Assembly (NCBI RefSeq): GCF_006345805.1
Contig: NC_042998.1
Coordinates: 64,542,001 to 64,606,000 of the forward strand
DNA length: 64,000 bases
Reading direction: 5' to 3'
Origin: Octopus sinensis
Lineage: Eukaryota
Below are positions 50,350 to 50,730 of this stretch, piece by piece (the stretch's first letter is position 1; every line of letters begins with the position of its first letter). The notes under the pieces are model-generated. The model ran no database searches, had not been told where the DNA came from, and saw only the letters and a list, made by a program, of their open reading frames with translations. The translations under genes were made by a program, and so were the position numbers.

Positions 50350-50450
50350 AGTATATGGTGTAGTGGTTAAGAGCGCGGACTACTAACTCCAACATTCCGA
50401 GTTCGATTCCAGGCAGTGACCTGAATAATAGTAATAATAGTAATAATAAC

Positions 50451-50500
<50 letters not shown>

Positions 50501-50730
50501 CAACAATGATACTGATAATAATAATAATAATATTAATAATAATAATAATAATAATTATGATAGTAATCATAATAAAAATAACAGCGAAAAATACCTTAGG
50601 AATAAGAACCCAGGTTCAAAATGTCCCCAAGTCACCCGATGAAGGCTGGAGGGTATATCAGCCGAAACGTTGTGTTGCAACAAACAAGATGAGGAAAATA
50701 TACATCAAATGTAAATAATGTATATAATGT
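50350..50730 (+). mobile_element. tRNA-headed SINE-like element with internal (AAT)n and a minimal HHR tail
   Basis: A box tggtgtagtgg 50356-50366; B box gagttcgattcc 50399-50410; (AAT)n about 50424-50580; HHR 50631-50676. Confidence 0.75.

Follow-up and report, generated by a model that had tools for sequence, protein, structure and literature searches.

A tRNA-headed octopus repeat with a Poseidon-type tail as a candidate Penelope-dependent SINE

The subject of this work is a short repeat of Octopus sinensis located at positions 50349-50728 of a 64,000-nucleotide stretch, hereafter the window (NCBI RefSeq assembly GCF_006345805.1, contig NC_042998.1, positions 64,542,001 to 64,606,000, forward strand). 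Inspection of the sequence and a motif scan revealed along this copy, in this order, an A box, a B box, an (AAT)n array and a hammerhead ribozyme motif, and terminal AATGTA-type repeats reach about 50728. The original prediction, made from the letters of the window, had described the locus as a short interspersed element (SINE) with a tRNA-type promoter, about 150 bp of AAT, a hammerhead of the kind known from Penelope-like elements (PLEs) and a repeat end. All of these features are present at the predicted positions, the array measuring 158 bp. The copy is composed as follows:

50349-50423, + strand: tRNA-derived head, probable source tRNA-Arg(ACG); the 5' end of the copy is decayed
50356-50366, + strand: A box (motif scan)
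50401-50409, + strand: B box (motif scan)
50424-50581, + strand: internal (AAT)n array, 158 bp (TRF)
50582-50728, + strand: tail, the 5' portion of a Poseidon-type open reading frame (ORF), stopping at the short 3' site (translation and profile matches)
50602-50604, + strand: start-codon position of the tail ORF (translation)
50631-50676, + strand: minimal type I hammerhead (motif scan and pair probabilities)

The head can be aligned end to end, without rearrangement, with tRNA-Arg(acg), with 46 of 74 letters identical (counted by eye) and a score of 56.5, compared to 40.5 for the best of 100 shuffled sequences. Together with the A and B boxes, this collinearity bears out the predicted tRNA ancestry. 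For the head at 50349 the score of tRNA-Gln (56.0) was nearly equal to that of tRNA-Arg, and it is mainly because of a second copy at 9404, which prefers tRNA-Arg (55.5 against 40.5), that an arginine origin is favoured. The 39 distinct tRNAs compared had been picked by a T-arm motif taken from the head, and the set is hence biased. From these alignments the head is derived from a tRNA, probably tRNA-Arg(ACG). The closest tRNA-Arg(acg) was found on a 1.2-kb contig (L098) of a bacterial bin; the contig looks eukaryotic, possibly host DNA in the bin.

ARAGORN and Rfam made no tRNA call on the head, and Rfam made no hammerhead call. Since neither part is detected by these programs, both assignments rest on motif anatomy and alignment. 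Single-strand folds of the head and of the hammerhead were no better than those of shuffled sequences (z between +0.3 and -1.3). On the two strands of the window taken together, the paired A/B-box pattern was found a single time. No run of four T residues (T4), the type of signal that could terminate transcription by RNA polymerase III (Pol III), was found between 50345 and 50760, a weak observation in that 27% of 230-nt tiles lack one as well. In ten Poseidon loci the distance from the end of the ORF to the hammerhead was 94-327 nt; none of these stretches has a B box and all ten have at least one T4 run, which shows that a tRNA head is not a general trait of the pseudo-long terminal repeats (pLTRs) of these elements. 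Among 79 metagenome Poseidon loci, BLASTN found no match to head or tail, and the A/B pattern occurred in one. ARAGORN reported no tRNA in the 60 of these 79 loci that were scanned, a weak control, as the program misses the octopus head too.

BLASTN within the window found the head again at 9404-9465 (87% identity, E 3e-17) and the tail at 9391-9280 (- strand), 2432-2541 (+ strand) and 2424-2332 (- strand), with identities of 84-88% and E values not exceeding 1e-27. These are the recurrences that had been predicted for the head (9402) and the tail (2333, 2444 and 9282), and the tail copies at 2333 and 2444 constitute a single inverted pair. One further copy, absent from the prediction (35549-35734), is the mirror of the second insertion within a 7.3-kb inverted duplication of 99.8% identity. 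The additional features are:

9280-9402, - strand: second copy, inverted tail arm adjoining the head without intervening AAT
9404-9819, + strand: second copy, 5'-truncated head and 356-bp (AAT)n array (BLASTN, TRF)
2332-2424, - strand: third insertion, left arm, stopping at the short 3' site (BLASTN)
2432-2571, + strand: third insertion, right arm, with an extension of about 33 nt to the long 3' site
2317-2330, + strand: left copy of a 14-bp target-site duplication; right copy at 2570-2583, its first two letters possibly belonging to the element
35195-35734, - strand: mirror of the 9280-9819 insertion, inside the 7.3-kb inverted duplication and thus not independent

With the mirror removed, three independent insertions remain in the window: 50349-50728 with head, AAT and tail, 9280-9819 with an inverted tail followed by a truncated head and AAT, and 2332-2571 with a pair of back-to-back tails. 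The copy at 50349-50728 diverges from the others by about 12-15%. No forward tail was found after the head and AAT of 9404-9819. Its expected position behind the 356-bp array is occupied by unrelated, unassigned sequence (9820-9870), possibly a later insertion into the array. The inverted duplication (6203-13518 versus 38811-31496, 99.8% identity) adjoins a gap of 100 N (13519-13618), and several near-identical short direct and inverted repeats lie at 4870-6807; both are likely to be assembly or haplotype artefacts.

The second copy shows an inverted tail joined directly to the head at 9402/9404, with no AAT between them. Contigs of four public sequencing runs were aligned to window positions 9270-9466, yielding 15341, 25183, 18041 and 2828 matching contigs, numbers that do not represent copy numbers. 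The first three runs are of DNA type and carry three organism labels, and run X22 is only guessed to be RNA. A total of 104 joints was obtained. Of the 15 listed, 13 connect an inverted tail to the 5' part of the head, with tail break points varying between 9299 and 9335, one is a deletion inside the tail and one is a sense head-to-tail joint. Five of the same inverted-tail/head junctions were found in run X4, which bears another organism label. Loose ends behind the head run into AAT in runs X4, X12 and X22, and loose ends 5' of the hammerhead region match, at 0.73-0.86, the linker seen in the 50582 copy. As had been predicted, the head, the (AAT)n array and the tail thus move together as a single unit: independent insertion of head and tail is rejected on the abutment at 9402/9404 and the 13 listed joints with their differing break points. 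The prediction that the element spreads AAT microsatellites held in part, in that two of the eight AAT-type arrays inspected stand behind this head; the other six carry neither head nor tail. On the 5' side of the head, a 30-letter consensus of the loose ends fades about 8-10 nt before the tRNA +1 position in all four runs. In the runs the 5' end of the head is marked by an 18-nt palindrome, ATATGCCC-AC-GGGCATAT, beyond which there is no consensus.

In the copies of the window one frame is open through the hammerhead, save for single lesions, and the tail, hammerhead included, corresponds to the opening ~55 codons of an ORF of Penelope/Poseidon type. A profile built from six window pieces matched 70 predicted proteins, 69 of which are short (P0002 is among the matches) and one is a spurious long repeat protein. 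A reverse transcriptase (RT) domain is absent from all 70, and we interpret the short ones as repeat copies translated by gene callers, not as a protein family. They split into the family of the window element, whose peptides carry the labels Octopus bimaculoides and O. sinensis, and sibling families in the same frame. The tail is homologous to the N-termini of P0170 and P0196 and of read-through proteins. In P0170 (847 aa, with RT and GIY-YIG domains) the match covers residues 14-65 (E 3e-7), and since the identity over the matched part is only about 40%, this protein is a relative and not the partner itself. Of 190 matches, 157 were nearer to the sibling family and 33 to the family of the window element. 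Four of the 157 sibling peptides continue into the Poseidon N-terminal domain and group with the RT-bearing P0199 (100/99 in a 27-row tree). An autonomous PLE sharing the tail, which the original prediction had proposed to look for, was approached through the relative P0170 and the read-through of the sibling family; none was found joined to the family of the window element (0 of 33).

The long 3' end of the element aligns with a conserved [FLY][RK]xx[ILV]xxxYG motif, present in 15 of 42 long ORFs, and with codons 36-40 of the Anolis protein P0234. In the cited passages on Poseidon_Ac, RT initiation is mapped to nt 111-118 of the ORF, and the genomic tail is tied to the gap between two start sites (PMC11167929). 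The window itself contains no RT and GIY-YIG ORF flanked by this repeat (Pfam on 83 of 240 frames; tblastn). Searching proteins by word index with one frame of 41 aa from the window gave no match, and exact tail patterns matched no metagenome, genome or viral contig. A tail derived from a long interspersed element (LINE) was rejected, the 3' part being the start of a PLE ORF with two fixed ends. In the linker ahead of the hammerhead (50609-50625) a second B-box-like word (GGTTCAAAAT in the 50349-50728 copy) lies within the coding frame. Peptides of the sibling family often contain two to four head-to-tail units of about 37 codons per frame (e.g. P0007, P0021, P0027 and P0072), and such a tandem would permit dimeric folding of the hammerhead. 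The first ~50 residues of P0155, a coding copy from the sibling family, match the antisense tail frame (window 2325-2480), so that here too an inverted arm lies upstream.

The hammerhead agrees in its motif anatomy with the predicted Penelope-type ribozyme and is of the minimal form. Its core starts at 50636, with C at position 4 in this copy and an extra A; stem II (50644-50663) has 5 bp with pair probabilities of 0.97-1.0; GAAAC occupies 50664-50668; and a GUU site places N17, the cleavage position, at 50671. Stem I has one mismatch, and helix III is palindromic and without a loop. The extra nucleotide after A9, the G10.1-C11.1 pair, the palindromic 15.2-16.2 positions and the short helix I correspond to the minimal hammerhead ribozyme (min-HHR) as defined in the cited part of PMC4209133, where such ribozymes are described as not cleaving as monomers and cleaving at a low level as dimers. 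In most contigs of the runs the GUU site is present and stem I is paired better than in the 9339 copy. Among 14 other Poseidon hammerheads printed, the GUU site was found in six and the CCGA core in two, and a hammerhead motif was present on the coding strand of 15 of the 79 Poseidon loci, several of these from one family. The active form was not obtained in unconstrained homodimer folds. Rfam matches to sR22 and CrcZ were far under the gathering score and were rejected.

The element had also been predicted to be processed by its ribozyme, and this part of the prediction is weakened. The two 3' ends lie 57-94 nt beyond the N17 cut site, so that a cut there would detach the head from the priming region. 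Poseidon_Ac is the only PLE to have been tested in vitro; its main substrate is given as uncut RNA, and insertion was unaffected by hammerhead mutants (PMC11167929, cited passages). Ribozyme cleavage is thus probably not needed, and the description as ribozyme-processed is probably wrong for head-bearing copies.

All four arms in the window end at one of two places, 57, 59, 59 and 94 nt past N17, and both the short and the long 3' end, about 33 nt apart, recur in the loose ends of all four runs. The pair at 2332-2571 consists of one short and one long arm flanked by the 14-bp target duplication, a match equalled at 2 of 3000 random window positions. An inverted, 5'-truncated arm was found in two of the three independent insertions, and by BLASTN none of the three contains a head-to-tail tandem. 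Arms arranged back to back, a pair of 3' ends, a palindrome at the 5' end and the target-site duplication of 14 bp together form a PLE footprint, and with the homology to the Poseidon ORF start they argue for the predicted mobilisation by PLE machinery.

We propose, with a probability of roughly 60 per cent, that this short and very abundant repeat carries in its head the promoter from which Pol III transcribes it, and that a Poseidon-type RT-endonuclease, priming inside the RNA, copies it in trans. Pol III would start at the tRNA +1 position and, with no T4 run in the element, would read on into the flank. The Poseidon protein would bind the ORF-start region, like Poseidon_Ac, and nick AT-rich DNA; cDNA synthesis would then start internally, at either of two sites situated about 59 and 92 nt 3' of the hammerhead cleavage position. 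Internal priming of this kind would give fixed 3' ends without poly(A), repeat tail, terminator or RNA processing. The inverted arm would be added by second-strand events; the hammerhead would be a legacy of the pLTR, able to cut in dimeric form only, and head-bearing units can probably be copied without it; and the internal AAT run would grow after insertion. A short RNA combined with internal priming would account for the inverted arms and for the consensus fading just 5' of tRNA +1. Functionally, the element would then be a SINE that depends on Penelope and has the shape of a solo pLTR; instead of forming a SINE lineage of its own, it may also serve an autonomous element as terminal repeat. 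Taken to its full extent, the proposal is that an octopus repeat of the commonest class is a true Pol III SINE partnered by a PLE, in which a tRNA-Arg promoter is fused via AAT to a protein-binding and internal-priming signal at the Poseidon ORF start, free of terminator, poly(A) and ribozyme cut, each insertion seeding an AAT microsatellite; to this version we would give an even chance.

Several observations weigh against the proposal. The acceptor and anticodon arms of the head do not fold as a tRNA, and the 30-letter loose-end consensus leaves room for a minority of copies with an ORF upstream. The runs were compared as contigs only, and Pol III transcription is put forward from the sequence. 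The joints are mostly single contigs with sides of 21-33 nt at 80% likeness, and run X1 is possibly the source sample of the window. No clear target-site duplication was found for the 50349-50728 copy, only 7-mers. On the protein side, none of the 33 peptides of the window-element family (one of them spurious) joins the N-terminus to an RT, a negative of little weight since only about six reach the long end; no such join was seen among the 120 of 125 matches listed either. Because no protein connects the family N-terminus with an RT, the partner enzyme is deduced from relatives about 40% identical, and the equation of P0234 with Poseidon_Ac is itself inferred from host, length and hammerhead frame.

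Of the other explanations, the main one is that the copies are truncated solo or inverted pLTR ends of an ordinary autonomous Poseidon element with long Pol II or tandem transcripts, in which the head was captured and plays no promoter role for short RNAs, and no SINE-like lineage exists. A 5' palindrome, an ORF start and an optional tail do make up the full anatomy of a pLTR (cf. the cited part of PMC3846280), the 94-327 nt between ORF end and hammerhead in the ten Poseidon loci would accommodate head and AAT, and the sibling family clearly represents the pLTR of an element with coding capacity. Random 5' truncation, however, should leave shared upstream sequence, whereas the upstream consensus stops sharply at tRNA +1 or at the palindrome in all four runs. 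Taking into account also that none of the 33 family peptides reads through (a weak point) and that the 3' untranslated regions of the ten Poseidon loci lack the B box and carry T4 runs, we regard this explanation as unlikely, if still to be reckoned with. It overlaps with the SINE-like reading, as SINE-like RNAs would also be shed by an autonomous pLTR if it had an internal Pol III promoter that works.

Replication in the manner of retrozymes or SM-alpha, in which multimers would be cut by dimeric hammerheads and the processed RNA, perhaps circularised, would serve as template, appears quite improbable. It could draw on the presence of all min-HHR hallmarks (PMC4209133, cited part), on the GUU site and better-paired stem I of the majority of contigs, on the two or three tandem units within some sibling peptides and on the proposal, in the cited part of a preprint, that animal retrozymes are PLE-dependent (bioRxiv 10.64898/2026.07.22.740005). 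Against these stand the absence of head-to-tail tandems from the three independent insertions, ends that do not coincide with the cut site but lie 57-59 or 94 nt beyond it, the parting of head and priming region that cleavage would cause, and the lack of effect of the Poseidon_Ac hammerhead mutants on insertion in vitro (PMC11167929, cited passages). A chance meeting of unrelated head and tail elements in AAT microsatellites is very improbable indeed. PLEs are described as favouring AT-rich or microsatellite targets (PMC11167929 and PMC8557442, in the parts cited), the 9404 head has no forward tail past its AAT and the 2332-2571 pair has no head; such encounters, however, would not explain direct abutment without AAT at 9402/9404 and in 13 of the 15 listed joints with differing break points, nor the linker agreement of 0.73-0.86, and the six other inspected AAT-type arrays hold neither part.

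In its build, the element resembles Poseidon_Ac of the green anole (PMC11167929) and Pen2/Pen2a of Adineta (PMC3846280), which according to the cited passages share with it an ORF start near the hammerhead, an optional tail of 30-40 nt, an inverted arm, a 5' palindrome, target-site duplications and AT-rich targets; the long end of the octopus element moreover aligns with the RT start region mapped for Poseidon_Ac (PMC11167929). For Pen2/Pen2a the cited text gives an 18-bp 5' palindrome, an inverted arm, a 9-10-bp duplication and a pLTR that holds the first 12 codons, or 22 with a 31-bp tail, and it reports that these pLTRs also mobilise unrelated sequence in trans (PMC3846280). The 5' part of Pen2a is described as a putative TATA/initiator (Inr) promoter (PMC3846280), whereas that of the octopus element is a tRNA-derived A/B-box head with (AAT)n. 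Unlike a Penelope/Poseidon pLTR, most octopus copies have no ORF past about 55 codons.

SINEs are defined by the use of LINE enzymes through a common 3' end. In octopus, the tRNA-derived SINEs OK, OR1 and OR2 were reportedly described by Ohshima and Okada in 1994; OR1 and OR2 are of arginine origin, and an abundant octopus SINE carries the name Twhin. With tRNA-derived SINEs including OK, OR1 and OR2 the element shares an A/B-box tRNA head, shortness, very high copy number and a non-coding nature. It differs in that it owes its 3' part to the start of a PLE ORF and not to a LINE 3' end, its simple repeat is internal and its insertions occur as inverted pairs; the LINE-shared 3' end with A-rich or simple-repeat terminus, a trait of ordinary SINEs, is lacking. 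In the cited parts of PMC4824008 and PMC4758252, OR1 and OR2 are described as CORE-SINEs. In both window copies and in the loose ends AAT follows directly behind the head, leaving no room for a CORE domain of about 60 bp, and identity with CORE-type OR1/OR2 was rejected on this description and not on an alignment of the CORE.

Schistosoma SM-alpha and Sj-alpha likewise have a Pol III-type promoter followed by a hammerhead, and are described in the cited part of PMC6765202 as tandem multimers cut to monomers; the octopus copies, in contrast, are dispersed or inverted, their ends do not coincide with the cut site, and their hammerhead is of the minimal PLE type within a coding remnant. Non-coding units moved in trans via pLTR-like ends are known from MRC1/Chlamys (PMC8557442), a short non-autonomous Penelope of Heliconius (10.1101/596502) and animal retrozymes (10.64898/2026.07.22.740005), and in the parts of these reports cited here no tRNA head is mentioned. 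The terms 'tRNA' and 'Pol III' do not occur in the retrozyme preprint (10.64898/2026.07.22.740005). A literature search, with Repbase, Dfam, SINEBase and subscription papers outside its scope, gave no description of a tRNA-headed, Penelope-mobilised element or of a hammerhead in an octopus SINE. Octopus repeat libraries may well contain the sequence already, listed among unclassified SINEs, even if the mechanism is not recorded there. The element combines known kinds, being SINE-like in working and a Poseidon pLTR in build, and it fails the LINE-tail test of ordinary SINEs.

If the proposed Penelope-dependent mode of copying is true, a Penelope enzyme borrowed via its ORF start would represent a third kind of SINE partner. 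In O. vulgaris, SINEs make up 11.6% of the genome and 893 of 900 recently active SINE families are unclassified, according to the cited part of PMC13282606; part of the large unclassified octopus SINE fraction would then be reassigned. The many copies would serve as a natural record of where PLEs prime, how they invert and which targets they choose. They also narrow a putative cis-signal down to about 150 nt, testable with purified Poseidon protein. The element could also be a source of some AAT microsatellites and of first exons, genuine or spurious, of octopus gene models. Two gene models, P0011 and P0112, open with its ORF-start peptide: dystrobrevin beta isoform X1 (O. bimaculoides) and LOC115224785 X2 (O. 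sinensis). These peptides are taken as exonisation or annotation artefacts.

Other repeats were noted as well. Fragments of a LINE of the restriction-like endonuclease (RLE) type, with a zf-RVT match, which we take to be Dong/R4-like, lie beside AAT arrays, and a 423-bp two-unit repeat also carries AAT arrays (20444-21238, 21637-22281 and 61728-62658); these would be a second source or user of AAT microsatellites. In an unrelated Poseidon locus (L001, 3942-3956) an ATT/AAT run stands just past the ORF end, inside the 3' repeat. The window further contains an RT-bearing LINE fragment (10687-12502), Mos1/mariner-like transposase remnants (48242-48996 and 57903-58256) and two more short dispersed repeat families (8888-9076 and 12387-12575; 13095-13286 and 56838-57029).
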